The notes below the pieces were generated by a model. The model had not been told where the DNA came from, made no database searches, and saw only the letters and a program-made list of their open reading frames with translations. A stretch of DNA of 64,000 bases, taken from Bacteroidales bacterium. GTDB taxonomy: Bacteria > Bacteroidota > Bacteroidia > Bacteroidales > VadinHA17. The translations under genes were made by a program, and so were the position numbers. Positions within the stretch are counted from its first letter, which is position 1, and each line of letters opens with the position of its first letter. The stretch is taken from the NCBI GenBank assembly GCA_016928075.1, contig JAFGLJ010000003.1, forward strand, positions 4,581 through 68,580. Reading direction: 5' to 3'. Positions 18,140 through 59,410 of this stretch are shown here, piece after piece.

Positions 18140-18305
18140 GGCATTCTTAATTCTTTCTGGTGTAACAAATAGATAGTCCTTATTTATTTCTTATTCTCAT
18201 CTAAAAGACCCCTAAACTCACAAAGTGTTGCAAAAAGAAATGTTATTTTTCATTAACATTAGAATCCCCCTTTCGAAGAGGATATGAATGAAGAATATCG
18301 ATTGA

Positions 18306-20344: not shown

Positions 20345-22408
20345 ATGAAGTACCTGCCAGTAGTATTAATTATAAGTACATTATTCATTTTTTCATGCGA
20401 TAATGACCAAACCACCCCTGGGCCTATTAGTACAGAAACACTCCTTGAGGAACTTATTTCTCTGGAGCGATTGAGTTATTTCCCTGATAATAAATACAGA
20501 ACAGTTCAATTCTCTTCATACGACAGGCGAAGTACCGTTTCCGGAAGGCCGGGATGGTTTAGTAATTCTGATGGTTTTGGAGCTGAGCCTGTGCCAGGAT
20601 TCCTTGAAACCCTTACAGAACCTGATTCAACTGGTATCGGAGAATATCTTGTTTGTGATATCCGCGGCCCCGGAGCAATAGTACGTACCTGGACAGCCAG
20701 GATTAATGGGGAGCTTGACGTCTACCTCGATAATAAAAATAAACCCGTCTACTCAGGTAATGCTGAAAAGTTCCTGTGGAACACTGCCTGGGCTCTTGAC
20801 ACTGATAATGACAGCAGCTTCCTTGAATCTGTTTTCAGGCAGAATGATGCCTGCTATTTCCCCATTCCTTTCAGTAAAGGATGCCGTATTGTCTGGAGGG
20901 GAGACATAAATCAACTGCATTTTTACCATATCCAGATGCGACTTTACAATGATAATACTGAAATAAGATCATTTTCCAGGGATGACATCGACAATGCTGC
21001 CGGCCTTATTGAAAAGATTGCAGGCATATTTAATTATCCTGGCAGTGAAATTTCGGTTAATGGTAAAGTAGTTTCAGGAGAATTGGTGATACCTGCCGGT
21101 GAAGCTGGAATTGTTGATACACTATCAGGAACATGGCAAATTACCAGGCTTGCCTTCAGAATTAAATCGGGCGAAATAAATACCGGATTAAGAAAAAATA
21201 TACTGAATATATTTTTTGATGATTCATCCATACCCCAGGTACATACCCCACTGGGTGATTTTTTTGGTGCAGCACCCGGGATTAATCCTTATTCCAGCCT
21301 GCCGTTCACAGTTAATGAGAATGGACTGATGATATGCCGGTTTCCCATGCCCTTTGAGCAGAAAGCACTTATAATGATAGAAAACCGTTCAGATGAAGAT
21401 ATGCATCTTCTTTACTCCTGCCGGTTTGAAAATTATGAATGGATTGAAGGCCGTTCAATGCACTTCAGGGCTAAATGGAGGATTGACAGGGAGATGACAG
21501 CCTCAAATGTTGATATACAGGATATACCATATATACTGGTGAAAGGAAAGGGAAGATTCGTAGGCGTGGCAGCTTTTATTAAAAATCCCAGTAGCGTTCC
21601 TTCGTCATGGGGTAACTGGTGGGGTGAAGGCGATGAAAAGATTTTCGTTGATGATGATATCAGCCCTTCTGTTTTCGGGACAGGATCAGAAGATTATTTT
21701 AACTACTCCTGGTCGTCAAGTGCACTTTTTGATCATATGTATTGCGGACAGCCACGTAATGATGGACCCGCAAACAGGGGTTTCGTGACAAATTACCGTT
21801 ACCAGGTAATAGATGACATAGTCTTTAACTCAGGGTTTGCCTTCTTTATGGAGCTCTGCCATCACGGGATTGTACATGACTTTGATTACGGCAGGATTTG
21901 CTACTATTATGCACCCCCTGAGACTTTTGATGATAATATGAGGATTTCAGATGCCGACATTGGCATGCAATCGATGCCCAACTGGGATGCACCGGGAAAA
22001 TACCTTGGTTCATCTGGTTATGAGTTTATTGAAGCAGAAGATATTGTGAGCCTTTATCCTGCTGACAGGTTGTTCTATGATTATTTATGGAGCGGGGGCA
22101 GGGCTTTCTTTAACACTTTCAGTTCAAAAGGCGATAGTTTTGAATTGAGATTCTCAATATCTGAAGCAGGTGAAAAAAGTGTACAATTGACTCTGGCCCA
22201 CACACCCCTGAGCGGCAAGGTGAAAATATACATCAAAGGATTGGAGGAACAAACAGCAGTTGAAGCCGACCTGAAATCAGATTACAGGATATTATCAAGG
22301 AATCACAGCCTGAGAAGAACAGAATTGCAGCCCGGCAACTATTCTGTCATTATTGAAAACCTTGAAGATGGAACAAACCGCGTTGGAGTGGACTTCATAT
22401 GGATTTAA
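20345..22408 (+). CDS. DUF2961 / glycoside hydrolase family 172-like protein
   Basis: Lipoprotein signal (FSC) and the characteristic WGEGDEKIFVDD ... FGTGSEDYFNY block of DUF2961. Confidence 0.75.
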   Translation: MKYLPVVLIISTLFIFSCDNDQTTPGPISTETLLEELISLERLSYFPDNKYRTVQFSSYDRRSTVSGRPGWFSNSDGFGAEPVPGFLETLTEPDSTGIGEYLVCDIRGPGAIVRTWTARINGELDVYLDNKNKPVYSGNAEKFLWNTAWALDTDNDSSFLESVFRQNDACYFPIPFSKGCRIVWRGDINQLHFYHIQMRLYNDNTEIRSFSRDDIDNAAGLIEKIAGIFNYPGSEISVNGKVVSGELVIPAGEAGIVDTLSGTWQITRLAFRIKSGEINTGLRKNILNIFFDDSSIPQVHTPLGDFFGAAPGINPYSSLPFTVNENGLMICRFPMPFEQKALIMIENRSDEDMHLLYSCRFENYEWIEGRSMHFRAKWRIDREMTASNVDIQDIPYILVKGKGRFVGVAAFIKNPSSVPSSWGNWWGEGDEKIFVDDDISPSVFGTGSEDYFNYSWSSSALFDHMYCGQPRNDGPANRGFVTNYRYQVIDDIVFNSGFAFFMELCHHGIVHDFDYGRICYYYAPPETFDDNMRISDADIGMQSMPNWDAPGKYLGSSGYEFIEAEDIVSLYPADRLFYDYLWSGGRAFFNTFSSKGDSFELRFSISEAGEKSVQLTLAHTPLSGKVKIYIKGLEEQTAVEADLKSDYRILSRNHSLRRTELQPGNYSVIIENLEDGTNRVGVDFIWI

Positions 22409-22649
22409 TCCCCCCCTTCAACTGAAGCAAAGCGGACTTTGTCATCCGAAGATTTATCGGAGGATGAGCTCGACGACCAGAAGGAGTCAACGGGTTAGGG
22501 GGATGTTTATATGTTTAACTAGTTTAATAGTTTAGGCGCAATCGCACGTCTCTACGGTTGTTAATAGTTGCAGTCTTCCCTCACAATTTCCTTTTTCCCC
22601 CGGCGTTCACTATGCTCTGCCGGGGTCTTCGCTTCGCTCCGACTTGTAC
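22409..22649 (+). repeat. Composite repeat element that starts at the stop codon
   Basis: It comprises a C-run/TTCAA start, a hairpin (22445-22461), GAGCTCGACGACCAGAAGGAGTCAACGGGTTAGGGGGATGTT, GTTTAA-type units, a GC hairpin plus CTAC, the ~33-nt module (22555-22590) and the 52-nt module (22592-22643). It is colinear with 59211-59394 and 57391-57573. Confidence 0.9.
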
Positions 22650-25297: not shown

Positions 25298-26779
25298 ATG
25301 AAAAAAATATTATTGACATTTGTTGCCATAAGCCTTGCTTCAGGACTGATGGCAGGCGGGCTGGTAACTAATACTAACCAGAGTGCCAGCTTTACCAGAA
25401 TGCTGTGCCGGGATGCAACTATAGGTGTTGATGCTGTGTATTTTAGCCCGGCCGGCCTGACAAAACTGGGTAATGGCCTTCACCTGTCTGTGAGTAACCA
25501 GACTATAGGACAGACCAAGACTATTACAAATGATTTTCCGTTTCTTAATGGCACAAAACCCGTTGAATATATAGGTGAAGTATCTGCACCCATATTTCCA
25601 TCTGTATATGCGGTTTTCAAAATGGGTAAGTTTGCTATCTCTGCGGGCTTTAACCCTATTGGTGGAGGTGGCGGTGCTGAATATGCCACCGGACTGCCTT
25701 CATTTGAAATGATGGTGTCATCCCTTGTCCCTTCACTGCAGGCTGCACTCAATGAACTTGACCAGGGTGTGCAGCTATTGGGTTTTCCCGATCCATTATT
25801 CAGAAATGTGCAATCATACACTTCGGATATAGAATTTACCGGTACTTCGGTATATTATGGTGCACAGGTCAATTTCTCCTACGAGATAAACAACATGATT
25901 TCTGTTGCACTGGGAGCACGTTATATTATTGCCAGAAATACATATACAGGCTCTGTATCAAATGTGTTGATAACGGCATCCCCTAATCCTGCAACAGGAC
26001 TGCCTTCACCCTTTAACGGTACCCCGGGCGACTACCTGAGGGCGGTGGCCGCTCACCCCTATGCGGTGGGTGCTGGTGTACAGGGAGAACTTACTGCAGT
26101 AGCAGCTGCCCTGGATATGCAAACCTCGCTGGAAGCAGATGTGCTTGAAAGTGGAACCGGTATAACACCAATACTGAGTGTTAATATATCACCGATTGAT
26201 ATGCTTAATATTGCAATCAAGTATGAGCATAAAACAAAACTAGAACTTGAAACAACAGTAAATGATGGAAAAGATGCCGGAGGTATGTGGGTCGATGGCG
26301 AAAAAGTAGTCGCCGACATGCCTGCAATGCTATCCGTAGGCGCATCGCTCAATCCGCTGAATAAGCTGCTTGTGTCAGCGGGCGTACATTACTACTTCGA
26401 TAAGAATAATGATTACGACGGTGACCCGGATATAGACGTGGATATGATAGATAATAACTTTATCGAATATGCCATTGGAGTAGAATACAACCTCTTCGGA
26501 CCACTGAGTGTAAGTGCAGGCTATGCAGGGACGAGGACAGGTGTAAATGATAACTACCAGAGTGACGCCAGATACAGCCTTAACACCAATGGAATAGGGG
26601 GTGGAGTTAAACTGTCATTGACGCCGCTAATAGATATTAACCTTGGCGGATTATATACCATGTACGAGGATGGTGGTAAATCATACAATTACGACCTTGG
26701 GGGAAATCCGGTACCGGTTAACGAAACTTACACCACTTCAACCTGGATTGTGGCAGTAGGAGTCGATCTTCACTTCTGA
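25298..26779 (+). CDS. FadL/OMPP1-like outer-membrane beta-barrel protein
   Basis: Signal peptide, an N-terminal GGLVTNTNQSA.FTR..CRDAT..VDA.Y..PAGL block, and a C-terminal aromatic residue (F). Confidence 0.65.
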   Translation: MKKILLTFVAISLASGLMAGGLVTNTNQSASFTRMLCRDATIGVDAVYFSPAGLTKLGNGLHLSVSNQTIGQTKTITNDFPFLNGTKPVEYIGEVSAPIFPSVYAVFKMGKFAISAGFNPIGGGGGAEYATGLPSFEMMVSSLVPSLQAALNELDQGVQLLGFPDPLFRNVQSYTSDIEFTGTSVYYGAQVNFSYEINNMISVALGARYIIARNTYTGSVSNVLITASPNPATGLPSPFNGTPGDYLRAVAAHPYAVGAGVQGELTAVAAALDMQTSLEADVLESGTGITPILSVNISPIDMLNIAIKYEHKTKLELETTVNDGKDAGGMWVDGEKVVADMPAMLSVGASLNPLNKLLVSAGVHYYFDKNNDYDGDPDIDVDMIDNNFIEYAIGVEYNLFGPLSVSAGYAGTRTGVNDNYQSDARYSLNTNGIGGGVKLSLTPLIDINLGGLYTMYEDGGKSYNYDLGGNPVPVNETYTTSTWIVAVGVDLHF

Positions 26780-26780
26780 T

Positions 26781-26950
26781 CCCCCTTTGAAGGGGGTGGT
26801 CCCGGAACTCCGGGACCGGGGGATGTATAAATAAGTTTAAGTGGTTTAAGTGGTTTAAGTGGTTTAATACTAAACTCTTAAACCACTTAAGCATTTCAAC
26901 CCCTCAACCTCCCAATTAAACGATTTAACAATTCAACAACTCAACAACCA
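26781..26950. repeat. Composite repeat element with two hairpins, a 9-mer array and its inverted counterpart
   Basis: CCCCCtttgaaGGGGG (26781-26796); GGTCCCGGaactCCGGGACC (26798-26817); GGGGGATGT; GTTTAAGTG x3 plus a variant (26835-26870). Reverse-orientation copies follow and form an 11-bp perfect stem (26857-67 with 26878-88). Confidence 0.9.
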
Positions 26951-46780: not shown

Positions 46781-48505
46781 ATGAAACCTTTTTCTAATAT
46801 TTTTTCATCATTAATACTCTTTTTTTCCTTTACATCAGCACTCTTCGCCCAGGATAATATCCTGTGGGGCGACGCGGTACCTGATGGATGGAACGGCAAC
46901 TGGACCAATGAGTATCTTACGGCATGCGAGAAATCGGGTTTTACCTATACTGCAAATAACCAGGATGTACTGGAATATTTCGAGATGCTCATGTGGCATA
47001 GCGAGCACGTGTCTGTATTCGATATGTTCATAAGCGACAGGGGCAGGTCATGCCCTGTGATGGTGATGGCCAACCCCAGGGTGCGAAATGCACGCGAAGC
47101 TAAGGAGTCGGGTAAAACAGTTGTGTACCTGCAGGGTGGCATCCACCCCAGCGAATGCGAAGGGAAGGAAGCATTGCTTATGCTGATGAGGGATATACTT
47201 CTCGGCGATAAGAACTACCTGCTCGATAAACTTATTATCCTGGTGTGCCCCAACTTCAATGTCGATGGTAATGAGACACGAAACCTTAGCAGTGGTAAAC
47301 CGGTTATCTCGGGAACAAGGCATAATGCTTATGGATTTGATATCAACAGGGATGCCATCAAGCTCGAGACAACAAATATGATTGGGGCTTACGAAAACGT
47401 ATTTAATACCTGGGATCCCATCCTGGTATATGATACACACCGAATGGGAAGTGTAAGGCATGGCTATCCGATTGTGTATGCAGGATCCAACGTTGCAACT
47501 GCCCATCCCGGACCACGCGACTATGTAACTTATAAAATATTCCCTGAGATAACCGAGCAGGGAAGGAAGAACGGTAAGATAGAGATATTTTATCACTGTG
47601 GACTCTCGAGGGATGAATGGCCGCCGGCAGAGTTTACTCATGACAATGCTATATGGTCAACTGAAGCAAAGTTCATGGTTAGCGGCTACGGGCTGCGCAA
47701 CCGGATGGCTATACTGGTTGAGACAGTGGGCTATGTATCACTGGAGAAAATGATCTACAGCCAATATGTCTTTGCGGACGAGCTCCTGAAATATATCTAT
47801 ATACATGGCAAAGAGATGGAAGAAATATGCAGGAAGACCGATGAGGAAGTGGTGAGGAAGATTAAAGAGGAAGCCCCATCAGGTAACCTTATGAATTATG
47901 TCGAAGGGGAATATGTTTCCGAGGGCAAATACGATATTCTGGGGTATAAAGAACTGAACTTCGGATATATCCCCGGCACCAGCATTATGAACGTTCAGCC
48001 GGTGAGCGAAGATGGCAGCCCTGAAGTGATCCCGGACGTTGAGCTGGTGACTAAACCTGTTGGTACCCGGCAGGCTGCCGTACCAAGGGGGTATTTCATC
48101 CCACGGGAAATGGGTTTCCTGGTAGATAAACTAAGGATCCTCGGGCTGGAAGTTACACAGCTAGAAGAACCTGTTATGGCGTCGGGTGAACAATTCGTTA
48201 TAGATGAGATGATACAGGAACGTACCATGACCTGGCCGGGGTATATCATGACCAGGCTTGAAGGCAACTTCGTAAAGGTGGAGGAAAAATATATCCCCGC
48301 CGATACCTGGCATCTTGATATGGCCCAGCCCCTGGCCAATGTGGCCTTTTATGCCCTGGAACCACAGGTAGGCGACGGCTTCATCGGATGGAACCTCCTG
48401 GAACAGTACTTCATAAACCTCGGGGTCTTTGAACACAGCATCGTTTATCCCGTATTCAAATACTTTAAAACGGTTCCCCCTTTGAAGGGGGAAAATCCCG
48501 ACTGA
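46781..48505 (+). CDS. M14-family zinc carboxypeptidase
   Basis: Signal peptide plus GGIHPSECEG (an HxxE zinc site). The last 9 codons (PPLKGENPD) and the stop lie inside the C5-TTTGAA-G5 repeat element. Confidence 0.7.
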   Translation: MKPFSNIFSSLILFFSFTSALFAQDNILWGDAVPDGWNGNWTNEYLTACEKSGFTYTANNQDVLEYFEMLMWHSEHVSVFDMFISDRGRSCPVMVMANPRVRNAREAKESGKTVVYLQGGIHPSECEGKEALLMLMRDILLGDKNYLLDKLIILVCPNFNVDGNETRNLSSGKPVISGTRHNAYGFDINRDAIKLETTNMIGAYENVFNTWDPILVYDTHRMGSVRHGYPIVYAGSNVATAHPGPRDYVTYKIFPEITEQGRKNGKIEIFYHCGLSRDEWPPAEFTHDNAIWSTEAKFMVSGYGLRNRMAILVETVGYVSLEKMIYSQYVFADELLKYIYIHGKEMEEICRKTDEEVVRKIKEEAPSGNLMNYVEGEYVSEGKYDILGYKELNFGYIPGTSIMNVQPVSEDGSPEVIPDVELVTKPVGTRQAAVPRGYFIPREMGFLVDKLRILGLEVTQLEEPVMASGEQFVIDEMIQERTMTWPGYIMTRLEGNFVKVEEKYIPADTWHLDMAQPLANVAFYALEPQVGDGFIGWNLLEQYFINLGVFEHSIVYPVFKYFKTVPPLKGENPD

Positions 48506-48556
48506 AAAGTCGGGATAGGGGGATGTTAAACAGTTCAATTTAACAATTCCTAAACA
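48476..48556 (+). repeat. Double-hairpin repeat element overlapping a stop codon, followed by TTAAAC/CAA-type units
   Basis: CCCCCtttgaaGGGGG (48476-91); TCCCGACtgaaaaGTCGGGA (48496-48515); TAGGGGGATGTT; then AAACAGTTCAATTTAACAATTCC. Confidence 0.9.
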
Positions 48557-57658: not shown

Positions 57659-59209
57659 ATGAAAATCATTGCAAAATCTGTTTACATCGCAGCTGTATTG
57701 CTCTTCCTCGGAGCCTGCACGCCTAAAACGTCTCAATCGCCAACCGACCTCACACAAACAAGTTTTATACCTCAACCTGCAAGTGTTACCGCCACAGGTG
57801 ATGCTTATACAGTATCTTCATCCACAGTGGTTTATTACCGGGCAGGGACGGAAGGATTGCAACAAACTGCCGCCTACCTGGCAGAACACCTGGGTGAGAT
57901 CTCAGGACTGGCTATCATTACTGAGTCAGCAGAAAAAGAGCCATCCAGGGGTATTTACCTGGAAATATCCGGCGACGATCCCGGGCTGGGTAATGAAGGT
58001 TATGAACTGAACATAGACAAAAAGCTGGTTACCATTAAATCAGCTTCAGCTGCCGGCTGTTTCTATGGCTGTCAGACGCTGCTGCAGACCCTGCCGGTAA
58101 AAGCAGCTGGCGACGAGTTGCTGGCTGTTGCTACCGGTACGGTCCGCGATTTTCCTGAATATGCTTATCGCGGGGCCATGCTCGATGTGGCACGCCATTT
58201 TTTCAGTGTTGAAGATGTGAAGAGGATGATAGATTTCCTGGCTGCTTATAAGATGAATGTGCTGCACCTGCACCTGACAGACGACCAGGGCTGGCGCATC
58301 GAGATCAAGTCGTGGCCCATGCTCACAGAGATTGGTGGCAGCACCGAAGTGGGTGGCGGTGAAGGAGGATACTACACGCAGGAGCAATATGCAGAAATAG
58401 TGGAATATGCACAGGAGCAGCATATTACAATAATACCGGAGATAGATATGCCGGGACATACCAATGCTGCGCTGGCTTCGTATGCAGAGCTGAACTGCGA
58501 CGGGGAAGCAAGGGAACTGTACACAGGTATCGAAGTGGGCTTCAGTACCCTATGTACCGGCAAGGAGATAACCTACCAGTTTGTGGATGATGTGGTGCGT
58601 GAGGTTGCAGCACTTATTCCCGGTCCGTGGTTTCATATAGGAGGCGACGAATCCCATGTAACGGCGCATGACGACTATGTTTATTTTGTTGAAAGGGTGC
58701 AGGACATTGTTGTAAAGTATGGGAAGAAAGTGATTGGCTGGGACGAGATTGCCAATGCAACACCGGTGGAAGGTACCACAGTACAGTTCTGGGACGACGT
58801 TGAAAATACCACCATGGGGGTGGATAAAGGAGCTATGGTGCTTATGTCGCCGGCAGCACGCGCTTACATGGACATGAAGTATGATCCCACCACAAAGCTG
58901 GGATTGTACTGGGCGGGCTATATTGAAGTGGATCACGGCTATGACTGGGATCCGGCAACAATGGTCGAAGGAGTCATAAAAGCAAATATCCTGGGTGTTG
59001 AGGCAGCACTGTGGACAGAAACCATCACCAACATGGACGAACTGGAATACATGGTCTTCCCCAGGCTGCCCGGATACGCCGAGATAGGCTGGACGGCCCC
59101 GGACCTCCGCGACTGGGAGACATACAGTTTACGCCTTGCCGACCACGGCAAACGCTTCGAAGACCTCGAAATTGATTTCTACCGATCCTCACTCGTCCCG
59201 TGGAAATAG
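57659..59209 (+). CDS. Beta-N-acetylhexosaminidase (GH20)
   Basis: Lipobox (LGAC) and the catalytic-domain blocks HLHLTDDQGWRIE and IGGDE. Confidence 0.9.
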   Translation: MKIIAKSVYIAAVLLFLGACTPKTSQSPTDLTQTSFIPQPASVTATGDAYTVSSSTVVYYRAGTEGLQQTAAYLAEHLGEISGLAIITESAEKEPSRGIYLEISGDDPGLGNEGYELNIDKKLVTIKSASAAGCFYGCQTLLQTLPVKAAGDELLAVATGTVRDFPEYAYRGAMLDVARHFFSVEDVKRMIDFLAAYKMNVLHLHLTDDQGWRIEIKSWPMLTEIGGSTEVGGGEGGYYTQEQYAEIVEYAQEQHITIIPEIDMPGHTNAALASYAELNCDGEARELYTGIEVGFSTLCTGKEITYQFVDDVVREVAALIPGPWFHIGGDESHVTAHDDYVYFVERVQDIVVKYGKKVIGWDEIANATPVEGTTVQFWDDVENTTMGVDKGAMVLMSPAARAYMDMKYDPTTKLGLYWAGYIEVDHGYDWDPATMVEGVIKANILGVEAALWTETITNMDELEYMVFPRLPGYAEIGWTAPDLRDWETYSLRLADHGKRFEDLEIDFYRSSLVPWK

Positions 59210-59210
59210 A

Positions 59211-59410
59211 TCCCCCTTTGAACCGAGTCCCGGGAATCCGGGACGAGCTCGGCGACCAGAGGGAGCCAACGGATTAGGGGGATGTTAATGAGTTTAAGTG
59301 GTTTAAGAGTTTAGATGTTGAGGGATTTAGAGGTTTAGACGAATAATATCGCGTTTCTACATTGGCAATTATTGCAACCTTCCTGCACAATTCCCCCTGC
59401 CCCCTGCTCA
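59211..59410 (+). repeat. Composite repeat element that starts 1 nt after the stop codon
   Basis: TCCCCCTTTGAA; nested hairpin CCGAG-TCCCGG..CCGGGA..CTCGG (59223-52); CGACCAGAGGGAGCCAACGGATTAGGGGGATGTT; GTTTAAGTG/GTTGAGG units (59292-59340); degenerate hairpin plus ~33-nt module (59361-94); CTGCCCC about 2 units (59397-59410). Confidence 0.9.

Follow-up and report, generated by a model that had tools for sequence, protein, structure and literature searches.

Three-block repeats at gene ends of an uncultured Bacteroidales genus and their linkage to DUF559 nuclease genes

Four genes on the + strand of the 64-kb window (the whole stretch of DNA analysed here) are followed at once by the same GC-rich element or end inside it. 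This raises the question of what the element is and why it sits at stop codons. The source genome (G000) is an uncultured Bacteroidales MAG of 2.76 Mb in 76 contigs (41% GC, 76% complete). Re-reading the sequence placed all four copies at the coordinates given by an earlier reading made from the letters alone (the sequence-only reading), each of them downstream of a + strand ORF.

Four copies in the window and one core in the genome

The first copy in the window is a long form (22409..22506, +) that begins 1 nt past the TAA stop (22406-22408) of ORF 20345..22408, where the sequence continues as TCCCCCCCTTCAA. Its C7 block is followed by a loop-1 insert, made up of two variable hairpins together with the core GAGCTCGACGACCAGAAGGAGTCAACGG, then by GGG as a weak proximal G-run, the linker TTA and the terminal block GGGGGATGT. 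The second copy (26778..26826, +) is a short form with a hairpin in its second loop. It overlaps the TGA stop (26777-26779) of + strand ORF 25298..26779, which is followed by TCCCCCTTTGAAGGGGG, and the GA of this TGA doubles as the opening two bases of GATCCCCC. After a T at 26780, the copy contains a C-block (26781-26785), loop 1 with the sequence TTTGAA (26786-26791), a first G-block (26792-26796), the hairpin GGTCCCGG/CCGGGACC (26798-26817) and the second G-block with its tail, GGGGGATGT (26818-26826).

The third copy, also a short form with a loop-2 hairpin (48475..48526, +), overlaps the 3' end of an M14 peptidase ORF (46781..48505). This ORF extends 10 codons into the element, and its TGA (48503-48505) is the loop of the second hairpin. 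The C-block lies at 48476-48480, loop 1 at 48481-48486, the first G-block at 48487-48491, the hairpin ATCCCGAC/GTCGGGAT at 48495-48516 and GGGGGATGT at 48518-48526. The fourth copy is a long form (59210..59285, +) immediately 3' of the TAG (59207-59209) of + strand ORF 57659..59209, so that the sequence reads TAG-A (59207-59210) and then TCCCCCTTTGAA. It consists of ATCCCCC, TTTGAA, an insert of CCGAG, the hairpin GTCCCGG/CCGGGAC and GAGCTCGGCGACCAGAGGGAGCCAACGG, the linker ATTA and GGGGGATGT (59277-59285). The terminal block GGGGGATGT occurs four times in the window, on the + strand only, a count reached in 0 of 100 shuffles (shuffle mean 0.82). By sequence resemblance, ATCCCCCTTTCGAAGAGGATATG in an intergenic spacer (18262..18285, +) is a possible decayed relic, with the C-block and loop retained and the remainder reduced to one degenerate G-block and an ATATG tail.

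The predicted folds of the window copies are stable (z = -2 to -4). A T-tract is absent downstream of every copy, as the sequence-only reading had said. In Rfam, the window had 0 matches at the gathering score, and the long form at a permissive E-value drew chance-level matches only (E >= 1.5), none of them credible. Known ribozymes and riboswitches were considered as the element's identity and dropped.

Tandem repeats of 7-9 nt often lie directly 3' of the elements, in the window at 26836-26870 and 59291-59330 and at many loci outside it, with units such as GTTTAAGTG, GGAATAAT, AGCAGGG, CTCGTTG and CATTCCAT. The recurring order at these loci is stop, element, tandem array, and some loci also have tandem repeats 5' of the element (GGTACTG-type).

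Across the source genome, we identified ~44 copies of the element at 35 loci. A minimal form of 29 nt, TCCCCC-TTTGAA-GGGGG-NNN-GGGGGATGT, accounts for ~25 copies. Its core runs from (G)ATCCCCC through a 6-nt loop to GGGGG, and from there through a 3-nt loop, most commonly TTA, to GGGGGATGT. Pairing is possible between the C-block and the first G-block, and the second G-block mirrors the first. The minimal form also occurs as head-to-tail arrays with periods of 31 and 36 nt. A G stands two positions 5' of the T of TCCCCC at 29 of 34 loci, and the element proper therefore begins G(A/T)TCCCCC. Where a T precedes that G, the resulting TGA is nearly always the gene's stop.

The remaining copies carry inserts. 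In the short form with a second hairpin (~10 copies), AAG-hairpin-A takes the place of the 3-nt linker. In the long form (~11 copies), a two-hairpin module of ~50 nt is inserted in loop 1; the C-block, linker and GGGGGATGT are retained, as is, usually, a proximal G-run (CAACGGGG). The sequence-only reading had distinguished a short and a long form and had described the G5 partner of the long form as displaced downstream. Both forms exist, but the G5 is not simply displaced: because most long copies retain the proximal G-run CAACGGGG, the long form is the short form plus a loop-1 insert. The two forms thus share one three-block core and differ in what is inserted into its loops.

Outside the window, five contigs (C6:27479, C42:153841, C75:72142, C12:39660 and C39:26888) carry a repeat similar to the long-form insert but free-standing, AACCGAGG..TCCCGA-loop-TCGGGA..GACGAGCTCGRCGAA. 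From this resemblance, the long form seems to consist of two repeats, the one lodged in a loop of the other. Hairpins of the TCCCG..CGGGA type also occur 23 times in the genome outside the C5 element, so the inserts derive from other repeat families of this repeat-rich genome.

The second hairpin had been proposed to keep its structure while its sequence changes. This holds across the genus, where the 14 distinct loop-2 linkers include at least 9 different stem sequences, among them GGGACAGC/GCTGTCC, GTCAGC/GCTGAC, GTCACGC/GCGTGAC and GGTCCCGG/CCGGGACC. For 13 of 14 loop-2 hairpins, 2.5% of shuffles or fewer fold equally well. In the variable hairpin of the long-form insert, the closing pair alternates between G-C and A-T and the inner pairs between CCGG/CCGG and CCGC/GCGG. 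Compensatory change is present in the small helix P3 (GRC/GYC) of the same insert, with 6 double changes in 16 sequences. Stem mismatches of the G:U type are about as numerous as those of the A:C type, both counts being few, and the sequence therefore does not discriminate RNA from DNA as the folded molecule.

Gene ends within the genus and beyond it

Genome-wide, the preference for stop codons suggested by the four window copies was borne out: 22 of 34 assessable loci have a co-oriented stop at -50..+20 nt relative to the element's first base, where chance placement at any intergenic site and on either strand would give 6.5% (binomial P = 2e-18). The upstream gene is co-stranded at 26 of the 34 loci, with 41.5% expected; gene calls for these position statistics came from a crude longest-ORF scheme. 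In the sister species G001, G004 and G006, a long open frame ends no more than 21 nt from the minimal copy in 8 of 20 cases. The minimal form itself has stops in two of its three sense frames, namely the TGA in the TTTGAA loop and the TAG in GGTTAGGG, which explains the ORFs that end inside the element.

Unrelated gene ends 5' of copies share a C-terminal peptide, ..PEQVAEWIK* or ..LEQVTEWLQ* (C19:2230-2700, C19:1301-1800 and C30:99-600; loci L006 and L009). These shared peptides suggest a repeated coding module upstream of the element.

Comparison of orthologous gene ends shows what occupies these positions in relatives. The site behind ORF 25298..26779 carries an element of the same build in G004, the closest relative, and a decayed long-like variant in G009. 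In G002 the site is taken by a textbook hairpin running into TTTTTT, and in G007, G012 and G001 by other GC hairpins. Behind ORF 57659..59209, the long form of the source genome corresponds to a minimal form in G004 and to degenerate copies in G014 and G002, and no copy is present there in G001, G006 and G009. We conclude from these orthologous sites that the element takes the slot of the terminator hairpin and turns over fast.

At the M14 peptidase gene, the G004 frame stops within loop 1 of the element, at a TAA (..T R S P F*), and in G013, which lacks the element, the protein ends ..S S P F*. In the source genome, one base is lost and the frame runs on to the next stop. The ..SPF* ends of M14 genes (window 48440-48505; loci L039 and L042) are encoded in G004 by TCCCCCTTTTAA, which equals the element's left arm, and in G013 by TCTCCTTTTTAA. 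Either the left arm arose from, or was captured at, a similar pre-existing coding end, or G013 retains a relic.

At four loci compared with relatives, neither a clean empty site nor a target-site duplication was readable. We attribute this lack of a readable insertion footprint to the spacers, which are rebuilt from many repeat families and turn over too fast. The ends of the element, ATCCCCC/GGGGGAT, form a 7-bp inverted pair; no duplication is visible in the flanks, where clean empty sites for comparison are lacking.

Minimal and long forms occur in 7-8 of 15 species of the genus and nowhere else among 40 relatives. At a wider scale, the exact pattern CCCCCTTTGAAGGGGGNNNGGGGGATG is present in more than 118 stretches of species-representative genomes, a lower bound. 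Among the matches listed, 90 are in Bacteroidota, from at least 7 orders; the other phyla are Nitrospirota, Thermodesulfobacteriota, Deferribacterota, Balneolota, Hydrogenedentota, Myxococcota, Calditrichota and Fidelibacterota. The minimal form C5-TTTGAA-G5-NNN-G5-ATGT is letter-identical in at least 9 phyla, within unrelated flanks. Viral contigs gave 1 match to the pattern in 2.9 million, and on this count phage carriage was rejected. A search of the literature did not find the element's 16-mer.

Among the cross-phylum matches listed, 11 of 96 loci are stop-proximal, against a null of 11%, and 66% are co-oriented with the upstream gene. With a stop-proximal fraction equal to the null, docking onto stop codons was rejected as a general property and is lineage-specific: it is a feature of this genus and not of the whole repeat family.

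These distributions bear on whether the element is a host RNA signal, that is, a U-tract-less terminator, a 3'-UTR stabiliser or a translation-termination-coupled structure, next to which DUF559 genes (see below) would lie incidentally. Such a signal would fit the sense orientation and stop proximity, the terminator hairpins replaced at orthologous sites, the covarying stems and the stable predicted folds (z = -2 to -4). We nevertheless find it improbable. It would have to accommodate 24 specified bases that are identical in at least 9 phyla with unrelated flanks and no stop preference there, a patchy distribution (7-8 of the 15 species in the genus) that tracks the DUF559 gene, copies in both orientations around DUF559 and the absence of an Rfam match. 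Moreover, a hairpin needs neither a conserved second G-block nor an ATGT tail.

DUF559 genes bracketed by three-block repeats

The source genome encodes two DUF559 genes, which score 103 and 111 bits against PF04480 (cut-off 20.6) and match PDB entry 3HRL, an 'endonuclease-like protein', with E = 6e-15. The first gene (contig C68:122-507, outside the window; 103 bits) encodes a Vsr-like protein of 128 aa of the PD-(D/E)xK type. It lies between + strand arrays of the element at 28-87 and - strand arrays at 508-567, with both GGGGGATGT ends facing the gene, and its TAA stop abuts ACATCCCCC. Orthologues with 81-85% identity are found only in G001, G004 and G006, the three sister species with 9-15 minimal copies. 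All of them occupy one syntenic locus, from a RadC-like gene to a convergent gene, and the gene is bracketed in every case. At dS of 0.36-1.6, dN/dS is 0.09-0.15, and the flanking repeat is letter-identical across that divergence. The gene is under purifying selection, and the repeat is conserved far beyond synonymous divergence. As the cassette is syntenic in four species, the cassette itself has not recently moved.

The contig ends C27:16-107 and C68:1-87 are the same 31-nt array, and in the sister species the RadC-like gene of C27 lies directly 5' of the DUF559 cassette of C68. From the shared array and this gene order, C27 and C68 are neighbours whose assembly was broken by the array.

The second DUF559 gene (contig C30:5437-5757, outside the window; locus L193 1410-1990) is bracketed by a three-block repeat of its own, CCCCTCCTTT / AAAGGAGGGG / GGGGTGG, whose second loop holds a hairpin. 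This C30-type repeat is the commonest partner of DUF559 genes in metagenomes and is not amplified in the source genome. In sister repeat families beside DUF559, the third block mirrors the second with A changed to T, as in CCCCTCC/GGAGGGG/GGGGTGG.

The association was recovered from both sides. When cross-phylum loci were picked by the repeat alone, 14 of the 118 listed held a DUF559 homologue (41-73% identity), which was directly adjacent in 10. In the reverse test, 80 metagenome loci were selected by DUF559 protein similarity alone, and a three-block repeat lay within ~110 nt of a gene end in 66 of them; the control, more than 400 nt away, gave 0.022 per window. Inward-facing repeats at both sides were present in 35 of 74 loci. 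The blocks vary among DUF559 loci (C5, C6, CCCCTCC, CCCTTCC and CCCCGC), with the third block mirroring the second and either T or A standing opposite A. Mapped on a tree of 94 DUF559 proteins, repeat type requires 8 changes (shuffle mean 28.1, minimum 23), and the choice between an ATGT and an ATT tail inside the C5 type requires 2 (10.9 by shuffling). Since kin share labels, what the tree establishes is joint travel and diversification of gene and repeat, not a mechanism. E. coli K-12 has a gene annotated as encoding a DUF559 domain-containing protein, ycjD (locus L313, NC_000913.3 1351205-1351760). The distance between this gene and TMECO/BoxC copy no. 9, a perfect one, is 168 nt, and the ycjD stop is itself overlapped by a degenerate BoxC-like hairpin. 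Our literature search found no paper linking DUF559 to repeats. Taken together, DUF559 genes are tightly bracketed by three-block repeats, both across phyla and in a clade-specific manner.

The data show the physical and phylogenetic linkage of gene and repeat, and they show the gene-end position with replacement of terminator hairpins at orthologous sites. We consider it probable that the elements are nuclease-linked, REP-like repeats, kept where they are able to replace gene-end hairpins. The element would be the dispersed, protein-less member of a two-part system with the DUF559 nuclease. The nuclease may recognise the folded repeat, and nicking by it, followed by repair or copying, could spread or homogenise the repeat. 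The copies that persist in this genus are those in sense orientation, directly behind or overlapping stops, and there they may act as mRNA 3' hairpins through 3'-end protection or U-tract-less termination. DUF559-driven movement is a candidate mechanism, as adjacency and co-inheritance are insufficient to show mobilisation.

The same nuclease could instead belong to the host. In that case, the element would be a hazardous or recombinogenic DNA structure (a hairpin, H-DNA or slipped DNA) and DUF559 a repair or surveillance nuclease rather than a mobiliser; copies would multiply by slippage, gene conversion or another agent, and gene ends would merely tolerate them. The Vsr-like nature of DUF559, the syntenic, host-gene-like cassette under purifying selection and the 31- and 36-nt tandem arrays, which point to slippage, all agree with this, as does the report that TMECO loci are unusually variable in E. 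coli (PMC4666352). A repair enzyme, however, needs no inverted substrate bracket, yet 35 of 74 unrelated metagenome loci have one, and it would not be expected to have a repeat type that tracks its tree. Tolerance alone also leaves the sense orientation (26 of 34 loci) and the stop distance of 20 nt or less unexplained. We judge this alternative unlikely, though less so than a host RNA signal.

A classical REP or MITE would place the element under a RAYT or IS200-like Y1 enzyme, or under a DDE transposase acting on the 7-bp ends ATCCCCC/GGGGGAT. Two Y1_Tnp proteins are encoded in the genome, and the element is intergenic and multi-copy with short inverted ends. But the palindrome on either side of the RAYT-like gene (C64), GGCACGGATCTGGAGATCCGCGCCAGC, is another one, no C5 element lies near the IS200-like gene (C9), and the element has no GTAG-type tetranucleotide and no visible target-site duplication. 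With other flanks at both Y1 genes, RAYT and IS200 were rejected as mobilisers, and this origin as a whole is very improbable.

The RAYT-like Y1 transposase gene encodes 188 aa with HxH and YIHNNPV motifs (C64:10362-10928, outside the window; locus L002 1429-1995). It is bracketed by inverted GGCACGGATCTGGAGATCCGCGCCAGC palindromes and has a gctggcgcggatctctctttaacttt tandem array upstream. The source genome thus seems to hold, at C64, a classical REPtron separate from the C5 elements.

For annotation, the element explains why many genes of this lineage end in or just before an identical GC element, and it carries a warning that C5 elements are not ordinary terminators. If the gene-end role is true, a selfish repeat would be replacing intrinsic terminators wholesale within one genus. 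To our knowledge, decades of cataloguing have given BoxC/PIT/TMECO-type repeats neither an origin nor a partner protein nor a function, and DUF559 is a very large family for which we know of no function. Orphan repeats of the BoxC or triplex type now gain a candidate protein partner and a possible gene-end role, and the cross-phylum bracketing of DUF559 merges the two puzzles, BoxC-type repeats and DUF559 function, into one bench-testable hypothesis.

Comparison with known repeat systems

The closest likeness in layout is to the BoxC/PIT/TMECO repeats of E. coli and other Proteobacteria, which fold in vitro into an intrastrand triplex of the purine motif (Holder et al. 2015, NAR 43:10126, PMC4666352; earlier work by Hoyne/Maher and Bachellier is cited therein). 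The TMECO consensus is CCCTCNCCC N3-6 GGGNGAGGG N3 GGGNGAGGG, with TTA or CCG in the second loop (PMC4666352). Both families have a pyrimidine block, a 3-6-nt loop, a complementary purine block, a 3-nt loop and a second purine block, and the triplex-class layout CCCCC-TTTGAA-GGGGG-NNN-GGGGG is found in ~25 copies of our element. TTA is frequent in the second loop of both; both are multi-copy and intergenic, also occur as inverted pairs and are patchy in close relatives; and a DUF559 gene (ycjD) adjoins one E. coli copy. The blocks here, however, are 5 nt of pure C or G rather than the 9 nt of CCCTCNCCC, the ATGT tail is conserved, the loops accept hairpin inserts and the host range is centred on Bacteroidota. 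The element does not match the TMECO consensus, which was found only in the E. coli control locus. Given its 5-nt homopolymer blocks, it shares the TMECO design and not sequence membership. The strong sense orientation and stop proximity in this genus are a further difference, as the E. coli copies lie more often 5' of ORFs with no distance trend reported, and published work on the E. coli relatives detected neither terminator nor promoter activity, nor a triplex that was stable in vivo (PMC4666352).

Intrinsic (Rho-independent) terminators resemble the element in placing a GC-rich hairpin right behind the stop, and the element occupies the site where relatives have a canonical terminator. Here, in contrast, the hairpin is followed not by a U-tract but by a second G-run and ATGT, the downstream bases are variable, and one identical sequence recurs across many loci and phyla. 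Among MITE-type repeats, some are known to overlap the 3' ends of ORFs and to supply their stop codons, for example the BRE of Betaproteobacteria. Our element likewise lies at or a few nucleotides from stop codons, with ORFs terminating within it, but differs in having no visible target-site duplication, another architecture and another associated gene.

RAYT transposases spread REP sequences, and the REP/REPIN and RAYT arrangement (REPtron) is a close parallel to the gene linkage described here. Both are families of short palindromic extragenic repeats with inverted copies on the two sides of one protein gene and with a repeat type that varies along with the protein clade, and in both, copies lie 3' of genes, where they can affect mRNA 3' ends. 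The differences are in the parts: the bracketed gene here is a PD-(D/E)xK DUF559 nuclease and not an HUH Y1 transposase, the repeat has a three-block rather than a two-arm design, and the GTAG-type tetranucleotide is absent, the element's ends being (G)ATCCCCC and GGGGGATGT. More tentatively, and with somewhat less than even confidence, we propose that DUF559 and three-block repeats may form a widespread RAYT/REP-like system built on a PD-(D/E)xK protein, present in Bacteroidota, in other phyla and in E. coli (YcjD/BoxC), whose repeats would have been co-opted in this genus as modular gene-end units that supply stops and replace terminators.
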